DNA of 56,684 nt from an uncultured Rikenella sp. (GCA_964470815.1 CAYYEH010000010.1:1-56684), one strand, 5' to 3'. Positions 2,925 to 12,843 are shown, numbered from the stretch's first letter. A program made the numbers and translations. The notes: generated by a model from the sequence alone, not told the origin.

Positions 2925-3509
2925 ATGGCAGGATTCATTGATGAATTTCTGAAGAGCTATGGTCCTGAGGTGACAAAACAGATGTCGAGGAACTTCAATG
3001 TAGACCAGGGAACGGTGCAGAAGCTGATCCCCCAGCTTGCGCCTCTCATCCTTGCGGGGCTAAAGAGGCAGAAGGACACCCGGGGCGGTGATGAGAGGGT
3101 TGGTCATATACTCAACAAGTATGGGGATGCTTCGGTTCTTAACAACATCAAGGACCTTGTTTCCAGCAAGGCACATGCCCGGGAAGTTGATCCCAACCTG
3201 GGCGGACTGTTGGGTGATGCCGGGGGACTCCAGGCAGCCCAGGCACTGGCTAATAGGATGAACATTGACCCATCGACGATCATGAAGATGATCCCGGCAC
3301 TGGCACCGCTTGTTCTGGGTGCATTGTCGAGGAAGCGTGATTCGGGTGGTCAGGGTATCTCCGGTGTAGGTGCACTCCTGGATGCTGACGGCGACGGCAG
3401 CATCCTTGACGACGTGGCAGGATATCTGCTCAAGGGCGGCACTGCAACCCGGAAGGAGGGCGGCGGACTGCTCGGTTCACTCCTCGGCGGTATCACACGC
3501 CGGAGGTAA
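2925..3509 (+). CDS. DUF937 (YidB-like) protein
   Basis: Repeated 'IPxLAPLxLxxL' helices, LDADGDGSILDD motif and Gly-rich tail GGGLLGSLLGG. Confidence 0.8.
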   Translation: MAGFIDEFLKSYGPEVTKQMSRNFNVDQGTVQKLIPQLAPLILAGLKRQKDTRGGDERVGHILNKYGDASVLNNIKDLVSSKAHAREVDPNLGGLLGDAGGLQAAQALANRMNIDPSTIMKMIPALAPLVLGALSRKRDSGGQGISGVGALLDADGDGSILDDVAGYLLKGGTATRKEGGGLLGSLLGGITRRR

Positions 3510-3519
3510 CTCTCTAACC

Positions 3520-4065
3520 ATGAAACAGCCGGTACTTTTCCTGTCTGTTCTCCTGGTACTCTGGATTGCCGGTGCTTCATACTGGTATGTATGCAAGATA
3601 AGGAGCGACTGCAAGGAAGCTGTCACTCCCGCCGTTGAGATCCAGGCTACAGGTGATACCCTGACACCGACCCCCGAACAACTCCTTCTTTCCTCGGTTG
3701 AAGCGGCAAAGAAGTTTCTGGAGGGGGCAGGCGTACAAAAAGGATTCTTTGCTTCGTCATCTGCTACCGGTGACGTAGGCGGGATAACCAACGACTACCT
3801 GCATAAGCTTAAACTGTTCCTCGACAACAACCCGTCAGCCCGGGCAGAGGTAACAGGTCATGCAGACATTACGGGACCCGAAGCCTTCAACGTCGAACTC
3901 GGACTTAAAAGAGCCGAATTCGTGAAATCTTTCCTGATCAATGCAGGGATAAAAGCGGATCAGATTGTGACATCAACGAAGGGTTCATCAGAACCCGCAG
4001 CGTCAAACAGCACGCCCGAAGGGAGAGCCGCAAACAGAAGAAGTGAAATAAAAGTAATAATTTAA
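3520..4065 (+). CDS. OmpA-family peptidoglycan-binding protein with N-terminal membrane anchor
   Basis: TM segment with WYVCKIRSDC, then OmpA_C motifs GHAD, N..LG.KRAE.VK and NRRSEI. ATG 3520 is preferred over the ORF-track start. Confidence 0.85.
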   Translation: MKQPVLFLSVLLVLWIAGASYWYVCKIRSDCKEAVTPAVEIQATGDTLTPTPEQLLLSSVEAAKKFLEGAGVQKGFFASSSATGDVGGITNDYLHKLKLFLDNNPSARAEVTGHADITGPEAFNVELGLKRAEFVKSFLINAGIKADQIVTSTKGSSEPAASNSTPEGRAANRRSEIKVII

Positions 4066-4070
4066 ACATC

Positions 4071-4754
4071 ATGGCAGAACGTTTTACAGCAGATCTGCTG
4101 TTCATAGTAATCGTGCTGCTAATTGCGGCACTGCTGGGTTTTCTGATCGGTTATCTCCTGGAGAGGGAACGCTGCAGAAAACGGATAGCCCTGAAGGACG
4201 AAGAAATTGAGAGATTAAATGCAAGGATACGCAGGCTTGAAGAGGAGAAAAATGCCCTGACCGCAAATGTGAAGGGGCTTGAGGAAGAAAAAGCTGCGCT
4301 CCGGGAAGATGCCAGGAGAATGGACGATGAAATCGCCAGCCTCAGGCTCACCATTGACAGACTGGAGAAGGAACTCGTGGTAATTAAAGAAGCTGGTACT
4401 GAGGGAGTCAGGGAGACTGCGGCAGATAAATTCACTGAAACCAGTGAAAGAATTAAGGACGCTGAAACTGCCGGAAGGACTCCAGAAACCGGAATAAAGC
4501 GCGATGATCTGAGGGTGGTTGTGGGTATCGGACCCAAGATCGCCAGCCTGCTCATCAACAGGGGAATAACAACCTGGAAGACCCTTTCCGAAACATCTCC
4601 TGTATATCTGAAGGAGATCCTTGACAAAGACGGAGGCGAACAGTTCAGGATACATAATCCCGAACACTGGCCGCTCCAGGCAAAGCTGCTCGACGAGGGC
4701 AGATGGGACGAGTTCAGGGAGTTGGAGGACAGGCTCGAAGGAGAGAAAAGCTGA
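4071..4754 (+). CDS. Membrane-anchored coiled-coil protein with C-terminal helix-hairpin-helix (COG3743-like)
   Basis: N-terminal TM helix, heptad coiled coil, then DDLRVVVGIGPKIASLL...W..QAKL..EGRW. Confidence 0.75.
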   Translation: MAERFTADLLFIVIVLLIAALLGFLIGYLLERERCRKRIALKDEEIERLNARIRRLEEEKNALTANVKGLEEEKAALREDARRMDDEIASLRLTIDRLEKELVVIKEAGTEGVRETAADKFTETSERIKDAETAGRTPETGIKRDDLRVVVGIGPKIASLLINRGITTWKTLSETSPVYLKEILDKDGGEQFRIHNPEHWPLQAKLLDEGRWDEFRELEDRLEGEKS

Positions 4755-4786: not shown

Positions 4787-4820
4787 GACACCCGGGCCCC
4801 TCACCCGGGTGTTGTGTTTT
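4787..4820 (+). terminator. Intrinsic terminator after the DUF937-OmpA-HhH operon
   Basis: Stem GACACCCGGG/CCCGGGTGTT with a 7-nt loop and GTGTTTT tail. Confidence 0.7.
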
Positions 4821-4915: not shown

Positions 4916-6442
4916 ATGACTTTAAACGAGGATTTTCTTTACCATCCCCGGAAGTACAACAAGATTGAATTATGGAAAGATGTAACGCCGGAGCAGTGGA
5001 ATGACCCTGCCTGGCAGAGGAAGAACTCAATACGGTCAGTTGACCAGCTTAAGAAGGTGATCAGGATGAGCGATCACCAGGAAGCAGAGATAAGACGAAC
5101 CATCGGGACGTTGAGGCAGGAGGGCAAGGAGCCTCTGAGGATCACCCCCTACTATGCCTCGCTGATGCAGGAGGACCCTTTTAACCCGGTCTTTTTCGGC
5201 GAAGTGTCGCATAAGCGTCTCGATCCCATTTTCTGGCAGAGTGTGCCAACGCCTGCCAACCTGATGTTCCCTGACGCAGGGGTTGAGGGAGCGATGAGCG
5301 AGGGATCGCGCAGCTACGGTGCTGCATACCAGCGCTATCCGAACAGGGTAGCGCTGTTTGTTGCAGAGAATACAAGCTGCGCCTCGTATTGCGTGCATTG
5401 CCAGAGGGCCAAGTCACTTGACACTACTGCCGATGTTAACAACCGCGAAGTGGATAAAGGACTCTTTTATATAGGGTATAACCGAAACATCAATGAGGTA
5501 CTCGTCACCGGCGGTGATGCGCTGATGATCAGCTTTAAAAGGTTGAAATATATACTCGGCGAGCTGAGCCGCATACCTCACCTGAGAGTCATCAGGATAG
5601 CCACCCGGGTGCCTGTGGTGCTCCCGATGCTGATCACCGATGAACTGCTTCAGATGATCAGGGAATCATCAAACAGGCATAACAGAGGTCCTGAGAAATA
5701 TGTCTATTTCATGACCCATATCAACCATTACCAGGAGGTTACTGCTGACCTGGCGGCTGCAGTGAAGAAGATCACCCGGCACGGGTTCACCATCCGCAAC
5801 CAGACCGTGCTTCTGAATCATGTCAATGACCACTACCGTACCCTGGCTGAGACCTTCAGGCGTATGTTCTGGGTGGGTGTCCATCCTTATTACCTGCTCC
5901 AGTGTCACAAGGAGAAGGGGATAGTCCACTTTATCACCCCCATCCAGGTGGGAAAGATTTACATGAAACACCTTCAGGGATGGATAAGCGGAATAACGGT
6001 ACCGCGCTATGCAGTCAACATTGAGGGAGGCGGCGGCAAGGTGCTGCTGATGCCCTCAGGGCATGATACCCTTAATCTTGATACCAATATAGACGACAAG
6101 ATATCGGAGAGCTATGCAAATGTCTATACCTGGGATCACAAGAAAATAGTTAAGTACGAAGCCCTCGGGAGGGCCACCAGGAAGGAGTACGAGCAGGCCA
6201 TGGGCATCATGGACCGGTTCGTCGGCCGTAAGGGGGTCTTTCTTCCCAGGATCATCATTGTGGATGAGAATGGCAACCACCTGGAGACCACCAACCGTAC
6301 CAAGCTGCCCACCTTTGAAAAGAGCAGGAAGGCTGCACTGCTGGGATACGATCTCTTCAACACGGAGATGCCGCTTACCAATCCGGTTGATGCATACGAC
6401 AGGATTGAAGAGGCCTTCAGCAGGTCAAAATTTAATAAGTGA
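4916..6442 (+). CDS. KamA-family radical SAM/PLP aminomutase-like protein, substrate uncertain
   Basis: CASYCVHC (CxxxCxxC), RYPNRV, TGGDAL, RIATR, NQTVLL and GGGGK (PLP lysine). Confidence 0.9.
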   Translation: MTLNEDFLYHPRKYNKIELWKDVTPEQWNDPAWQRKNSIRSVDQLKKVIRMSDHQEAEIRRTIGTLRQEGKEPLRITPYYASLMQEDPFNPVFFGEVSHKRLDPIFWQSVPTPANLMFPDAGVEGAMSEGSRSYGAAYQRYPNRVALFVAENTSCASYCVHCQRAKSLDTTADVNNREVDKGLFYIGYNRNINEVLVTGGDALMISFKRLKYILGELSRIPHLRVIRIATRVPVVLPMLITDELLQMIRESSNRHNRGPEKYVYFMTHINHYQEVTADLAAAVKKITRHGFTIRNQTVLLNHVNDHYRTLAETFRRMFWVGVHPYYLLQCHKEKGIVHFITPIQVGKIYMKHLQGWISGITVPRYAVNIEGGGGKVLLMPSGHDTLNLDTNIDDKISESYANVYTWDHKKIVKYEALGRATRKEYEQAMGIMDRFVGRKGVFLPRIIIVDENGNHLETTNRTKLPTFEKSRKAALLGYDLFNTEMPLTNPVDAYDRIEEAFSRSKFNK

Positions 6443-6492: not shown

Positions 6493-6526
6493 CGGAGGCC
6501 GGTCCTAAGACCGGCCTCCGTTTTTT
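6493..6526 (+). terminator. Intrinsic terminator between the convergent kamA-like and aor genes
   Basis: Perfect 12-bp stem CGGAGGCCGGTC/GACCGGCCTCCG, CTAA loop and T6. Confidence 0.9.
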
Positions 6527-6541
6527 AAGTGCTCTGTATCT

Positions 6542-8695
6542 TCACTGCAGCGGGGCAACCACCTCTATCACCTCAGGGAAGTCAATCCCTATCTTCTTCA
6601 GGTGCTCAATGGTGGGGATGCCGTTGTTGTTCCAGCCACGGCGCCTGTAGACTGCATCGCGCAGCAGATCATACTGTTTCTCGCGGAACTGCCTCATGAC
6701 CTTTATCTTCTCTTCGGTGCTCATCCCCTCCGGGTCAACGCCTATCTTCTCCTTCATCTGTTTGTCATAGCGCTCCTGGCGTGAGAGGTATTCCTCAACG
6801 GTTACCGGGCCGCAGGCGCGGTACGGCTGATCATCATCCTTGCGTCTTCCATATCCGCGGCGTATGTTGAACACTCTCTGGAAGTTGTATACCCTCTCGG
6901 AATCCTCGATGAGCCTGTGCTTGTCGAACTCCCTTCCGGTCACGGATTTGTAGATTGTGACATAATTGTCTACATGTTCCGGGACCTTTGCAGGTTCGTC
7001 GGTCTGTGCATTATTCTCCGGCTCCACGTCGTTCCAGGGGAGTTTGCAGAGGCCAACCAGGCCGAACCATGTGCGGAACATCGGGAAATAGTGCAGTGCT
7101 TCGGCCTTGTTCTCGAATGTCGGGATCTGATTGTTGACCATATCCATGAAGATGAGCCATGCCTCGTCGTGCTGCGGACCCTTGTTGGTGAGGGCATAAC
7201 CTCCCTGCTGGGCAAGCGACTCCTTCGACATGTACTGTGAGTACTCAAGTCCTTTGTTTTCCATTCCGATATCCTGCATGAACTGATGGTCGCCCCAGCC
7301 CTTTTCTGCAAAGATCTGCTTCATGCGACGGATACCCTGGCCGGCTATCAGTCCGAAGCCTTCACCCCGGGCCACCTGGTGCAGCAGTTCGAGTGCCGCC
7401 GGGATGTTGCCAAAGTTGAGCTCGAGGCCACCTGTGCGTTCCTTGTTGAGAATGCCGTTTTCATAGCACTCCTGTATGAACGCAAGGCTGGTTCCCCAGG
7501 TGATGGTGCAGATGCCGTAGGTATCGCAGTAGAAGTTAGTCTCAATGATATAGCGCGGGTCAAAGAATCCGCCGTTGGAACCCAGACCGGCAGCCGTCTC
7601 GTACTCCGGTCCGTCTACGATTACCTTCTGCCCGGCATATGGTCCTGAGGATATCTCGTAGTCATCCACTGCCTTTGCACATGACATGTTGCATCCAATC
7701 CAGCAGCCGTCAGGTATGCCCTGGGTAAAGAATGAGGTCCATACTGCCGAATCAATCTTCGGGGCATCCTTATGTGATCCGAACTTGTAGTTGTGTGTCG
7801 GCAGCAGGTCATGGTCATCCATGATCTCCATCAGGTGAGCGGTACCCACCTGCCTCATTCGGCACTGCTTGTCGTCGAGCTCACGCATCTCACGGTTAAA
7901 GCGACGTCCGCGCTCCTGGATAGCTTCGAGGTCAACCACGTTGTTGAGATTGCCCTTCACTCCCGGAATCCTGCATACCAGCGCCTTTATCTTCTTGTTG
8001 CGGAAGACGGTGCCTATGCCGCCGCGGCCGGCCTGCTTCAGCCTTATCTTCTTCCGCTTGTTGTCATAGAAGGTGAAATTGAGCATCCCGATCAGTGAGT
8101 GGTCTGCAGCCGTACCGGCTGATACAATACCAATATTTTTCCTGTCAGACTCATTCTCGGCAAACATGTCTGTAAGCTGCTCCGCAATGACATGGGTATC
8201 AATTGCTTCGGCCGGCGCCTCGAATATCTCTATATAGTGGTCAACACCATTGATGTAAACAATGACATCGTTGGCAGCCTTGCCCTGCAGCTCTATGGCA
8301 TCAAACCCGGAGAATTTGAGGAAGGGGCCGAAGAAGCCGCCTACGTTGCTGTCCATCACCGAGTCAGTCTGTGGCGAGATGGATACCACCAGGGACTTCC
8401 CTGTGCCTGAGTACTGGGTGATGCCGCCGATGGGGCCTGAGGAAATTACTATCTCGTTTTCGGGATCATCCCATTTTGTATCCGGTTTGGTAGCATCCCA
8501 CAGATAGCGGAGGCCATAGCCTTTCCCGCCGATGAATTTTTCCTTCATCACCGGAGGAACGTTTTTCTCCTTTATCTCGGCGGTGCCGACATTGATATAA
8601 AGAGTCTTGTCGGTATAGCCCTTGTCAAGAGGAGTCCATTTGTAGTTCCACCTGTTGAGCAATTTGTGTTTCGACTTGAGTTCGCTGATATCCAT
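6542..8695 (-). CDS. aor: Aldehyde:ferredoxin oxidoreductase family (tungstopterin, 4Fe-4S)
   Basis: GGKGYG, AGRGGIGTVF..K.IKA, GT...LP..NY, Cys cluster CWIGCNMSC, EYET, GxC late Cys and Y..RGW...GIPT. ATG 8695 is preferred over TTG 8725. Confidence 0.9.
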   Translation of the reverse strand: MDISELKSKHKLLNRWNYKWTPLDKGYTDKTLYINVGTAEIKEKNVPPVMKEKFIGGKGYGLRYLWDATKPDTKWDDPENEIVISSGPIGGITQYSGTGKSLVVSISPQTDSVMDSNVGGFFGPFLKFSGFDAIELQGKAANDVIVYINGVDHYIEIFEAPAEAIDTHVIAEQLTDMFAENESDRKNIGIVSAGTAADHSLIGMLNFTFYDNKRKKIRLKQAGRGGIGTVFRNKKIKALVCRIPGVKGNLNNVVDLEAIQERGRRFNREMRELDDKQCRMRQVGTAHLMEIMDDHDLLPTHNYKFGSHKDAPKIDSAVWTSFFTQGIPDGCWIGCNMSCAKAVDDYEISSGPYAGQKVIVDGPEYETAAGLGSNGGFFDPRYIIETNFYCDTYGICTITWGTSLAFIQECYENGILNKERTGGLELNFGNIPAALELLHQVARGEGFGLIAGQGIRRMKQIFAEKGWGDHQFMQDIGMENKGLEYSQYMSKESLAQQGGYALTNKGPQHDEAWLIFMDMVNNQIPTFENKAEALHYFPMFRTWFGLVGLCKLPWNDVEPENNAQTDEPAKVPEHVDNYVTIYKSVTGREFDKHRLIEDSERVYNFQRVFNIRRGYGRRKDDDQPYRACGPVTVEEYLSRQERYDKQMKEKIGVDPEGMSTEEKIKVMRQFREKQYDLLRDAVYRRRGWNNNGIPTIEHLKKIGIDFPEVIEVVAPLQ

Positions 8696-8728
8696 ATTAA
8701 GGTTTTTAATTGTTATCCGTGTCAATTA

Positions 8729-10407: not shown

Positions 10408-11409
10408 TCAGAATTCGGGGCAGGGGATTGCGTGGATCTTTCCGCCGCGCTTCACCTGTGAAGAGGTAAAGGAATAAATCAGCGATATCTCATATGCGCC
10501 GCCTGAAGAGGTGATGAGGTTGGAGATGGTAAAATCATAGCTGAGGCCAATATTCAGCTGGTCAGTCTTGATTCCGAGCATCCCGATGATGGCATCGCCT
10601 GCCTGGGCTGACACCTCCTTCGATGTGGCAAAAGGTATTCCCCTGTACCAGACTCCGAAGACCAGGGGGTTCTTGTAGTAATAGAATCCGATGTCAGACT
10701 GGAAAAAATCACCCTGGAACATCACGTTGCCGGCAACAGACAGGACCTCCTCCAGTTTCTTCCTCAGCCTGCCGCGGCTGATGATCTGGAATCCACCGAA
10801 GAGATCGACCTTTACGGGAACTGAGTTATTGTCACCCCAGAAAGATGTTCTGGGCCTGAGGAGATGGTCAACGGTAAAGCCTCCCCATATCTTCTCGTTA
10901 TAAGCCAGCCCTGATACCGCAAAGTCTATGTCAGCAACGTTGTCGAATGGAGGGGGGGTGATTGGAGGAAGTGTTCCTCCGGTTGTAATCTGGCTGTTCC
11001 ATACCAGTTTGGTGAGATCGAGTCCGAGGTAGGTGAATTTAAAATTGACGCCGGGTCTGATATGCCATTCATCATTCAACTGTATATCATACGAATAGAG
11101 TAGCCCGAGATTAGTGGTGCTCAGGTCGCCTGAACCTGCCACATCATAGGTTGCAAGTATTCCGATGCCGGAGTTGAAGTTTGGTACTGCCTTGTCAAAT
11201 GAGACGCTGTAGGTATGGAATACTCCCGGAATTGAAGGCCACTGGTTTCTCCAGTTGAGTGAAAAACGGTAATCCTCCGTGGCTCCTGCAAAGGAAGGAG
11301 CCAGGTAAAGCTGGTTGGCATAGAACTGTGAGAACTGGGGGTCCTGGCCTTTCAGAACGAATGATACTAAAAGCAGCAGGCCTGTCAGATATTTAGCTTT
11401 TAAGGGCAA
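10408..11409 (-). CDS. PorP/SprF-family T9SS membrane protein
   Basis: QDPQFSQFY...L.PSFAG, RNQWP, GLSYDFTIS.L...GG.YEISL. Confidence 0.9.
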   Translation of the reverse strand: MPLKAKYLTGLLLLVSFVLKGQDPQFSQFYANQLYLAPSFAGATEDYRFSLNWRNQWPSIPGVFHTYSVSFDKAVPNFNSGIGILATYDVAGSGDLSTTNLGLLYSYDIQLNDEWHIRPGVNFKFTYLGLDLTKLVWNSQITTGGTLPPITPPPFDNVADIDFAVSGLAYNEKIWGGFTVDHLLRPRTSFWGDNNSVPVKVDLFGGFQIISRGRLRKKLEEVLSVAGNVMFQGDFFQSDIGFYYYKNPLVFGVWYRGIPFATSKEVSAQAGDAIIGMLGIKTDQLNIGLSYDFTISNLITSSGGAYEISLIYSFTSSQVKRGGKIHAIPCPEF

Positions 11410-11541
11410 TCCGGATAAATTTTAGTTACACAAAGTAGCTAATTATACGGCCCAAATTCAGGAAGGTTACATCAAATTATATCAACAATCTGAAGGTAAA
11501 CTGCCCGAGATATCAACAACAGACCCTTAGTATACTAATGA

Positions 11542-12843
11542 TCAATAATTTATAAGCGTCACATCACCTGCCATAATGAATGTCTGGCCATTCCTGTATG
11601 TTCCCCTGACCTTCCACACGTATACACCGGGAGCGCATAGTTCGCCCCTGTAGTATCCGTCCCATCCCAGTTCAATATCATTGCTCTCAAATACAAGCAT
11701 GCCAGCCTTACTGTATATTTTCAGGTTGTATGAGACTATTCCTGAGGCGACGGGGTGAAATACCTGGCTCTCCTCATCGGTGCGCTGGTTGTAATATCCT
11801 CCGGTAGGGCCTCCGCTGTTGGGGACGAAGGCATTGGGGAACCTGATATACAATCCCCTGTCGGTGAAGAGGTCGGTTACGGTCAGTGAGTCTGCACAGC
11901 CATCGGCCGACCAGGCCACGAGTTTAACATCGAAGACACCCATAGACCGGTATTTGTATGACGGGTCAGAGAGGGTGGAGAAGGTTCCGTCTCCGAAGTC
12001 CCACAGGTAATTCACCGCACCGGTGGAGAGGTTATCGAACTGAACCCTGTCACCCTGGTCCCATGAGTCGTCGCGGATCACCTCGAAGGCTGCCTTGGGC
12101 CTGTCCCATACCTCAATCAGTACTGATGCATCTGTTGTGCGGCCCCTGCTGTCGGTTGCTGTGATGGTCACACGATAAGTGCCGGGTATATCAAATATGT
12201 AATCCGGATTTCTGAGTGATGAAGTCCCGCCGTCCCCGAAATTCCAGTTTAACCTGATGCCGTCACCGGCGTTGGTGGTGAAGGTTACGTGCAGCGGGAT
12301 GCATCCGGATGTTACGGATGGTTCAACTGAGAGCGGGTATAAGGGTGAAGTGACGGCAGCTTCTCTTGCGTTGTCGATGGTGCTGACGGAGATTGTTTCC
12401 GAGGCGGATCTGCCGGAGGTGATTACTGATTCACGGCTGACGGTTTCACCGACAGGCGGTGTTGCATGCCCGGACACGCTTTCCGGTACCTGGTCCGGTT
12501 TATTTGCACCTTCTGCCGAATCTGCTTTTACCTGATCCTCCCTCTGGCCGCTGCCGGGGTCAGTGGTTACTGCTTCTGCTGGTACCGGCCGGTTATCCGG
12601 GATGGTTGTTCCGTCATCATTGCCGGTTACGGAGAACAGAATTACACCGGCTGCTGTCAGTCCGGCCATTGCAGCGGTCAGGTAATATATATTGAATCGT
12701 GAGATGTTGAAGCGGAAGAACTCTCTTCGCTCCAGGCGGCGCATAAAACGGCCTGTAAGGTCGCTTCCTGCAACCAGCTCATTCTCCTCCAGCTTGTCGC
12801 GGAAAAGATTTTCAAGACCGTTATCCCTTTCCTCTTCTGTCAT
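11542..12843 (-). CDS. PKD-domain protein with T9SS type-B C-terminal domain and anti-sigma-like N-terminus
   Basis: Two WNFGDG/WDFGDG PKD repeats. CTD: FPNAFVPN...IYSKAG.LVFES...GWDG...GVYVW. N-terminus LENLFRDKLEE followed by a TM helix. Confidence 0.85.
   Translation of the reverse strand: MTEEERDNGLENLFRDKLEENELVAGSDLTGRFMRRLERREFFRFNISRFNIYYLTAAMAGLTAAGVILFSVTGNDDGTTIPDNRPVPAEAVTTDPGSGQREDQVKADSAEGANKPDQVPESVSGHATPPVGETVSRESVITSGRSASETISVSTIDNAREAAVTSPLYPLSVEPSVTSGCIPLHVTFTTNAGDGIRLNWNFGDGGTSSLRNPDYIFDIPGTYRVTITATDSRGRTTDASVLIEVWDRPKAAFEVIRDDSWDQGDRVQFDNLSTGAVNYLWDFGDGTFSTLSDPSYKYRSMGVFDVKLVAWSADGCADSLTVTDLFTDRGLYIRFPNAFVPNSGGPTGGYYNQRTDEESQVFHPVASGIVSYNLKIYSKAGMLVFESNDIELGWDGYYRGELCAPGVYVWKVRGTYRNGQTFIMAGDVTLINY

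Follow-up and report, generated by a model that had tools for sequence, protein, structure and literature searches.

The stretch of DNA analysed here as a whole (the window) comprises 56,684 nucleotides from an uncultured Rikenella sp. (GCA_964470815.1, CAYYEH010000010.1:1-56684). A single open frame of 508 codons at 4916-6442 on its plus strand encodes a 508-aa protein, P0001, of the KamA family of radical S-adenosylmethionine (SAM)/pyridoxal 5'-phosphate (PLP) proteins. It belongs to a clade that keeps the catalytic residues of lysine 2,3-aminomutase (LAM) and has replaced both aspartates that bind lysine. The gene and its relevant parts are:

4916-6442, plus strand: putative aminomutase gene (open frame, TIGR00238 match, AlphaFold2 (AF2) model) with the stop codon TGA at 6440-6442
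5378-5407, plus strand: radical SAM cluster motif C155-x3-C159-x2-C162, followed by Gln163 and Arg164 (LAM equivalents Thr133 and Arg134)
5906-5908, plus strand: codon CAC of His331, within YYLLQCH, at the site of LAM Asp293 (HMMER alignment)
6017-6019, plus strand: codon AAC of Asn368, within RYAVNIEGGGGK, at the site of LAM Asp330 (HMMER alignment)
6038-6040, plus strand: codon of Lys375, the PLP-binding lysine in GGGGK (within RYAVNIEGGGGK), equivalent to LAM Lys337
6140-6439, plus strand: clade-specific C-terminal extension, approximately residues 409-508 (~100 aa), from the clade alignment and outside the VIA-align span

P0001 passes the generic KamA subfamily model of NCBIfam (TIGR00238, 246.6 bits at a cut-off of 199.2). 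It stays below the cut-offs of the equivalog models for AblA-type LAM (TIGR03820, 275.1 versus 525.4 bits), for arginine 2,3-aminomutase (TIGR04468, 220.8 versus 600 bits) and for EpmB, which acts in beta-lysylation of elongation factor P (TIGR03821, 164.6 versus 369.3 bits). A Pfam scan gave a sub-threshold Radical_SAM match and the first 32 positions of LAM_C, nothing more. A phmmer search against all PDB sequences returned one relative, the LAM of Clostridium subterminale (2A5H, E 1.5e-61). The AF2 model, built on 92 family sequences, reaches a pLDDT of 90.5 and superposes with residues 12-408 on residues 3-390 of the 2A5H chain (VIA-align, Z 43.8, root mean square deviation 1.8 A over 344 residues). 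The next PDB entry follows at Z 13.8. P0001 is thus predicted to adopt a LAM-type fold, and 2A5H is its sole close structural match.

The cluster motif reads CASYCVHCQR. In the HMMER alignment to 2A5H, from which all LAM residue numbers given here were counted, C155, C159 and C162 align with LAM C125, C129 and C132, R164 with Arg134 and K375 with Lys337. This catalytic set is invariant or almost so across the 92 family sequences. His331 and Asn368 stand at the sites of Asp293 and Asp330. In LAM two Asp residues bind the epsilon-ammonium of lysine, whereas the binding of glutamate is linked to a conserved pair of Lys and Asn (PMC3965090). Of this pair the clade of P0001 has the Asn, and the Lys position is an invariant His. 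An earlier reading of the sequence alone (the sequence-only reading) had described just this combination: an intact SAM cluster motif, the Arg of HCQR and the Lys of GGGGK, with a His codon at 5906 and an Asn codon at 6017 in place of the two Asp. It had also named Lys/Asn as the residues of glutamate 2,3-aminomutase at these sites. The alignment agrees with this description, and the Lys/Asn pair is borne out by PMC3965090 and by a representative that passes TIGR04368. The same reading had pointed to a missing C-terminal Zn-Cys cluster. This holds insofar as P0001 has no Cys after residue 330 (LAM Cys268 aligns with His306), but the feature is not distinctive. True-LAM representatives carry 3-4 Cys in this tail, glutamate aminomutase representatives none (0/6), and most other family members lack the tail too. 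Only the true LAM clade has it, so its absence is not diagnostic.

A search of 5.8 billion proteins yielded, among the matches listed, more than 120 clusters (90% identity) at 74-93% identity to P0001. Their named sources are metagenome-assembled genomes (MAGs) of Bacteroidales or Bacteroidota and the isolate Williamwhitmania taraxaci (P0107). An exhaustive search of representatives at 50% identity added a few relatives at 31-51% identity (P0122-P0125, P0127 and P0146), all of which keep His/Asn and span the C-terminal extension. Below them the scores drop sharply to generic KamA proteins at ~200 bits. His331 and Asn368 are invariant in the 121 close homologues and in 12 clade representatives. 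In a tree of 144 representatives these 12 His/Asn sequences form a monophyletic group (SH-like support 0.988), distinct from the Lys/Asn clade as well as the Asp/Asp clades. This alignment and phylogeny with LAM and glutamate aminomutase, a comparison already proposed in the sequence-only reading, hence sets the His/Asn clade apart from both. The clade labels were validated by equivalog score, with P0151 passing the glutamate aminomutase model (693 bits, cut-off 650) and P0131 the LAM model (638 bits, cut-off 525). The tree was built with FastTree, is unrooted and has no outgroup, and its deep branching is weakly resolved. Another of its sequences, P0232 (529 aa), has Ser and Thr at the sites of the two Asp and represents a further pocket type; its best equivalog score is to the glutamate aminomutase model (314 bits, below the cut-off).

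In an even sample of the order, 8 of 15 carrier genomes (the host genome counted) have another KamA gene, canonical in length. The paralogues read are without exception Asp/Asp LAM types (5/5), and likewise all 28 readable loci among the top-scoring Bacteroidales KamA loci; a canonical Lys/Asn enzyme was not found among the latter. The presence of Asp/Asp LAM paralogues in carrier genomes therefore marks the His/Asn protein as a paralogue with a different job. In the host genome of the window (3.13 Mb, 90.7% complete) the gene of P0001 is the one true KamA-family gene. Bacteroidales hold at least three further KamA-related forms besides LAM and the His/Asn protein (e.g. G559:C149, G480:C6, G477:C9, G503:C1), with lengths and scores of ~600-660 aa and 290-320 bits, ~700-760 aa and 140-165 bits (below the cut-off), and ~380-460 aa and ~170 bits. 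Contig C21 of G000 encodes a 524-aa radical SAM protein of weak KamA similarity (L002:1015-2589, minus strand; TIGR00238 80 versus 199 bits), directly 5' of the gene for 3-oxoacid CoA-transferase subunit A.

Several clade-conserved positions depart from the conserved consensus of the Asp/Asp sequences: Q139 (LAM His111), Q163 (Thr133), E194, T198 (Ser169), H331, I340 (Arg302) and N368. Of nine positions diagnostic for glutamate aminomutase versus Asp/Asp sequences the clade shares four, namely M127, Q163, T198 and N368. Not one of 106 Asp/Asp sequences has M127, Q163 or N368, and Gln163 is present in all representatives of both the His/Asn clade and glutamate aminomutase. The basic residues R139, H329 and K331 of glutamate aminomutase are replaced by Gln, Gln and His in the clade. 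Pocket roles beyond those of Asp293, Asp330, Arg134 and Lys337 are assigned from the alignment. In our reading the pocket would be shaped like that of glutamate aminomutase with most of the positive charge removed. Such a pocket should accommodate glutamate, held by a protonated His, and just as well glutamine, which is isosteric and neutral; we would expect a hydrophobic side chain to fit poorly.

The long C-terminal extension, likewise mentioned in the sequence-only reading, adds ~100 residues past the part that superposes on LAM. It is conserved throughout the clade, with M432, F435, P444 and P490 invariant in the alignment. Within the full AF2 model it shows high pLDDT and packs on the core, and it has no counterpart in LAM. 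Folded alone it reaches a pLDDT of 70.5 and finds no match at E <= 0.001 in a Foldseek search against the PDB, which is not evidence for a new fold.

The distribution of the clade is patchy within anaerobic Bacteroidales. A scan of species-representative genomes gave 313 loci, the best 80 of which all belong to Bacteroidales MAGs from digesters, sludge, sediments and biofilms. In an even sample of the phylum none of 400 other genomes carries the gene at E <= 1e-100. In the order sample it is present in 14 of 200 other genomes, spread over ~13 families, and was not found in the other sampled genus of the window's own family. Despite this patchy occurrence, Bacteroidales copies from different families are 60-75% identical. 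The archaeal members of the clade come from MAGs of DPANN lineages, with the labels Aenigmarchaeota and Nanoarchaeota.

The gene forms a monocistronic unit in the window, preceded by a promoter motif and bounded by a terminator on either side. The flanking elements are:

4788-4812, plus strand: GC-rich hairpin with a T-rich run, which likely terminates the upstream gene (4071-4754) and sets it apart from the gene of P0001
4856-4863, plus strand: TATATTTG, a match to TAnnTTTG, 52 nt before the start codon
4904-4910, plus strand: AAGGAGG, a Shine-Dalgarno-like motif 5 nt before the ATG at 4916
6493-6520, plus strand: 12-pair hairpin resembling a terminator, with a T run behind it, between the gene of P0001 and the convergent aldehyde:ferredoxin oxidoreductase (AFOR) gene

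We take TAnnTTTG to be the -7 promoter motif of Bacteroidota, and TATATTTG is a candidate promoter on this assumption. A Shine-Dalgarno-like motif is found at 41 of 90 homologous loci, among them nearly all close syntenic relatives (often as an identical AAGGAGGTGCTG ATG) but few distant Bacteroidales. The motif thus seems to be particular to the lineage and not general to the gene family. A riboswitch or other leader RNA was considered and rejected, as an Rfam scan of the whole window gave no matches. Upstream lie genes for a DUF937 protein, an OmpA-family protein and a coiled-coil protein. The convergent neighbour (6542-8725, minus strand), which shares the hairpin at 6493-6520, encodes a 727-aa aldehyde:ferredoxin oxidoreductase (AFOR_N and AFOR_C). 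It scores 92 bits versus 868 at the NCBIfam AOR equivalog and is therefore a divergent family member. No kamDE, ablB or GNAT gene lies within ~5 kb of the gene, in line with the sequence-only reading, which had found no kamDE or ablB nearby. Partners of the epmA/efp type were not seen within 5 kb either (the genome was not searched for epmA). Further downstream (10408-12843, minus strand) a type IX secretion PorP/SprF gene and a gene for a PKD/CHU_C-tailed cargo protein confirm a Bacteroidota host.

Gene neighbourhoods were compared at 84 Bacteroidales loci, the counts being drawn from related, non-independent genomes. The arrangement of the window is common only to close relatives (37/84 loci), and neighbours differ elsewhere. 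A conserved operon that would reveal the pathway was thus rejected, and the more distant contexts amount to scattered hints. Stress genes directly adjoin the gene on the same strand in several of the ~14 distinct arrangements. A gene for a membrane protein of the Na+/H+ exchanger family lies 15-27 nt upstream at no fewer than seven loci (PF00999, E 6e-19 for L100). Other arrangements place a tandem Usp gene and a ribosome hibernation factor (HPF) 50 nt upstream, or three consecutive Usp genes, the last one ending 4 nt upstream, or OsmC and a Crp-family regulator as neighbours. Some Bacteroidales copies adjoin genes of amino-acid metabolism, namely proB, asnA, an aspartate-aminotransferase-like gene, a group II PLP decarboxylase and an M19 dipeptidase. 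In the distant members L011 and L012 a glutamate dehydrogenase gene starts 37 nt downstream, and a related gene lies near the L013 copy. The basal member P0124 lies between genes for an ATP-grasp ligase and an ArgE/DapE-type M20 hydrolase, and stop and start codons overlap (an apparent operon). An upstream AsnC-family regulator and a convergent downstream lysA are common to two DPANN genomes, although their proteins are only 41% identical. Combined, these contexts, none of them decisive, suggest a free amino acid close to glutamate metabolism as the substrate and a function in stress.

Two further associations emerged from this comparison. Genes for OmpA-domain/coiled-coil proteins of ~180-230 aa adjoin the aminomutase gene in several arrangements, upstream in the window (2925-4754, plus strand) and downstream in L052-L056 and L060 (of loci L052-L060), sometimes with a DUF3108-like gene, and the association survives rearrangement. 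In L072 and L081 a gene 30 nt downstream (L072:9545-11284, plus strand) encodes a protein of 579 aa that combines a domain of the histone deacetylase family with a weak GNAT match at the N-terminus. By analogy to AblB this protein may be an acetylation/deacetylation partner.

From the above we infer a reaction, a substrate and a physiological role. By analogy to LAM, a [4Fe-4S] cluster on C155, C159 and C162 would cleave SAM to yield the 5'-deoxyadenosyl radical. The amino acid would be bound as external aldimine with PLP, which is released from Lys375, and its alpha-carboxylate would rest on Arg164. The radical would then take a hydrogen from C3, whereby the amino group would migrate from C2 to C3 via an azacyclopropylcarbinyl radical. 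The side-chain pocket appears rebuilt, with His331, Asn368 and Gln139 in place of Asp, Asp and His of LAM, which argues that the substrate is not lysine. The likeliest substrate would be an acidic or amide amino acid with five carbons. As product we expect a free beta-amino acid that is probably used as such, because the gene is monocistronic and usually stands alone; the lack of a conserved downstream enzyme suggests that the beta-amino acid itself would be the end product. The recurrent stress-gene neighbours suggest a role as compatible or stress solute, a function for which beta-amino acids in methanogens set a precedent (PMC1224877).

Our best explanation in full is a 2,3-aminomutase for an amino acid other than lysine, most likely glutamate or glutamine, which represents an unstudied KamA clade and makes a free stress-protective beta-amino acid. 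We assign it a probability of about 0.45. Its parts differ in strength. P0001 is very probably a genuine amino-acid 2,3-aminomutase, and its substrate is almost certainly not lysine. The latter had been claimed in the sequence-only reading and is now well supported by the replacement of the ligands throughout the clade, the score of 275 versus 525 bits, the separate clade and the co-occurring Asp/Asp LAM paralogues. L-glutamate is the leading candidate at somewhat less than an even chance, whilst L-glutamine taken singly appears quite improbable.

Several observations weigh against this explanation. P0001 remains far below the cut-off of the glutamate 2,3-aminomutase equivalog (TIGR04368, 251.3 versus 650 bits), and the sister of the His/Asn clade in the tree is the single Ser/Thr sequence P0232, not the Lys/Asn clade. 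The sequence-only reading had left the choice between glutamate and a new substrate; this is the right pair of options. P0001 is not a member of the known glutamate aminomutase family by score (251/650 bits) or by clade, although it has four of the nine diagnostic residues. The loss of the basic residues R139, H329 and K331 would suit a carboxylate less well, and Gln139 is presumed to line the pocket from the alignment only. Moreover the Bacteroidales neighbourhood is mostly unconserved, with no stress genes among the neighbours in the window. A link to methanogens that accumulate beta-glutamate was rejected, as the archaeal members are DPANN and not methanogens. Early nuclear magnetic resonance evidence summarised in a 2005 review (PMC1224877) spoke against a glutamate aminomutase as the source of beta-glutamate in methanogens. 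Finally, no activity or characterisation of any clade member was found in literature full text. Characterised clade members are likewise absent from PDB, NCBIfam and Pfam.

The main alternative keeps the chemistry and changes the substrate to another polar or neutral amino acid, neither glutamate nor glutamine, such as alanine, methionine, histidine, asparagine, serine/threonine or an ornithine-like compound, with a product new to radical SAM enzymes. LAM-derived engineered alanine 2,3-aminomutases reportedly carry His or Gly at the Asp330 equivalent. The His/Asn/Gln pocket fits none of the known specificities, every equivalog model is failed, and unassigned clusters in the PLP-dependent subgroup of KamA-family proteins were noted by the SFLD (PMC3965090). 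Yet the polar pocket of Gln, Gln, His and Asn runs contrary to aliphatic or thioether side chains, the four positions in common with glutamate aminomutase point to a glutamate-shaped substrate, and a need for beta-alanine finds no support. Specifically, a natural alanine 2,3-aminomutase supplying beta-alanine for pantothenate was rejected as a necessity, since the genome has adjacent panC and panD above cut-offs. We therefore consider such a substrate unlikely. A basic one is less probable by far. In that case the enzyme would still act on lysine (or arginine/ornithine), the side chain being held by other residues; the best equivalog score is indeed that of AblA-type LAM (275 bits) and the DPANN members are convergent to lysA. 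However, both acidic ligands are gone and no clade-specific acidic residue among the clade-discriminating positions compensates for them. Canonical LAM paralogues in the same genomes and the lack of an ablB, kamDE or epmA-like partner gene nearby also argue against it, making it most improbable.

The same reaction could also be catabolic. The beta-amino acid would then not accumulate as a solute but would be the first intermediate when amino acids are fermented anaerobically. Beta-lysine is such an intermediate in lysine fermentation. The hosts are anaerobic Bacteroidales of digesters and sediments, the aldehyde:ferredoxin oxidoreductase gene is convergent at 37 of 84 loci, glutamate dehydrogenase genes adjoin distant members, and M20 and M19 peptidase genes adjoin some copies. 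Against this, conserved downstream pathway genes (dehydrogenase, CoA-transferase, lyase) do not accompany the gene, which in the window is monocistronic with own promoter motif and terminators, and the adjacency of the oxidoreductase is limited to close relatives with the whole arrangement in common. We hence rate fermentation as rather unlikely and favour the role as stress or compatible solute at odds of roughly two to one. A departure from aminomutase chemistry altogether, i.e. another radical-PLP reaction or action on an amino acid bound to a peptide or carrier, where the extension would recruit a partner, could be seen in the conserved, clade-specific ~100-aa extension that lacks a structural match and in the ATP-grasp ligase and M20 hydrolase genes around the basal P0124. 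It is very improbable given that all residues known to be necessary for the aminomutase reaction are kept and that the Arg for the alpha-carboxylate implies a free amino acid. The extension packs on the core with high model confidence, which fits a role in structure or oligomerisation better.

To our knowledge, the established specificities of radical SAM/PLP 2,3-aminomutases are only lysine, glutamate and arginine. A bolder, doubtful proposal is that the clade acts on an amino acid for which no radical SAM aminomutase is known. Conversion of L-glutamine to beta-glutamine would be most attractive here because the pocket resembles that of glutamate aminomutase with its three basic residues neutralised (Gln, Gln, His). 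If true, a single enzyme would provide anaerobic Bacteroidales and DPANN archaea with a neutral beta-amino acid as stress solute; we know of no beta-amino-acid solute in Bacteroidales of anaerobic digesters and sediments. The clade is large, with 313 loci and, in the matches listed, more than 120 clusters at 90% identity. It is under strong purifying selection, the identity between Bacteroidales families reaching 70-75%, and is routinely annotated as 'lysine 2,3-aminomutase', a label that is almost certainly wrong. Definition of the substrate would correct this annotation, could add a fourth specificity to the KamA family and could identify a beta-amino acid in abundant digester and sediment Bacteroidales. 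With Williamwhitmania taraxaci a cultured carrier makes the clade directly testable.

Compared with known systems, P0001 shares with LAM (KamA/AblA, 2A5H, TIGR03820) the fold at 32-35% identity, the N-terminal domain, the CxxxCxxC motif, the alpha-carboxylate Arg and the PLP Lys in GGGGK. It differs from LAM by His for Asp293, Asn for Asp330, Gln for His111, Gln for Thr133 and Ile for Arg302. Furthermore, it lacks the Zn-binding cysteines, has ~100 extra C-terminal residues, falls into a separate clade and co-occurs with true LAM. With glutamate 2,3-aminomutase (TIGR04368, an SFLD family), reportedly described from Clostridioides difficile by Ruzicka and Frey in 2007, it has in common the Asn at the Asp330 site, Gln163 (in HCQR), Thr198, Met127 and the absence of a Cys-rich tail. 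In contrast, the glutamate-binding Lys of that enzyme is His in P0001 and its Arg139 and His329 are Gln. P0001 is also ~100 aa longer, is not its sister in the tree and occurs in other taxa (Bacteroidales and DPANN archaea). The AblA/AblB system of methanogens, which makes N-epsilon-acetyl-beta-lysine upon salt induction, differs by its conserved adjacent acetyltransferase partner, missing beside the gene of P0001, and by its substrate, which in P0001 is almost certainly not lysine. With its KamA-family aminomutase and a beta-amino acid made for osmoadaptation (PMC1224877), it is the physiological model that we propose for P0001.

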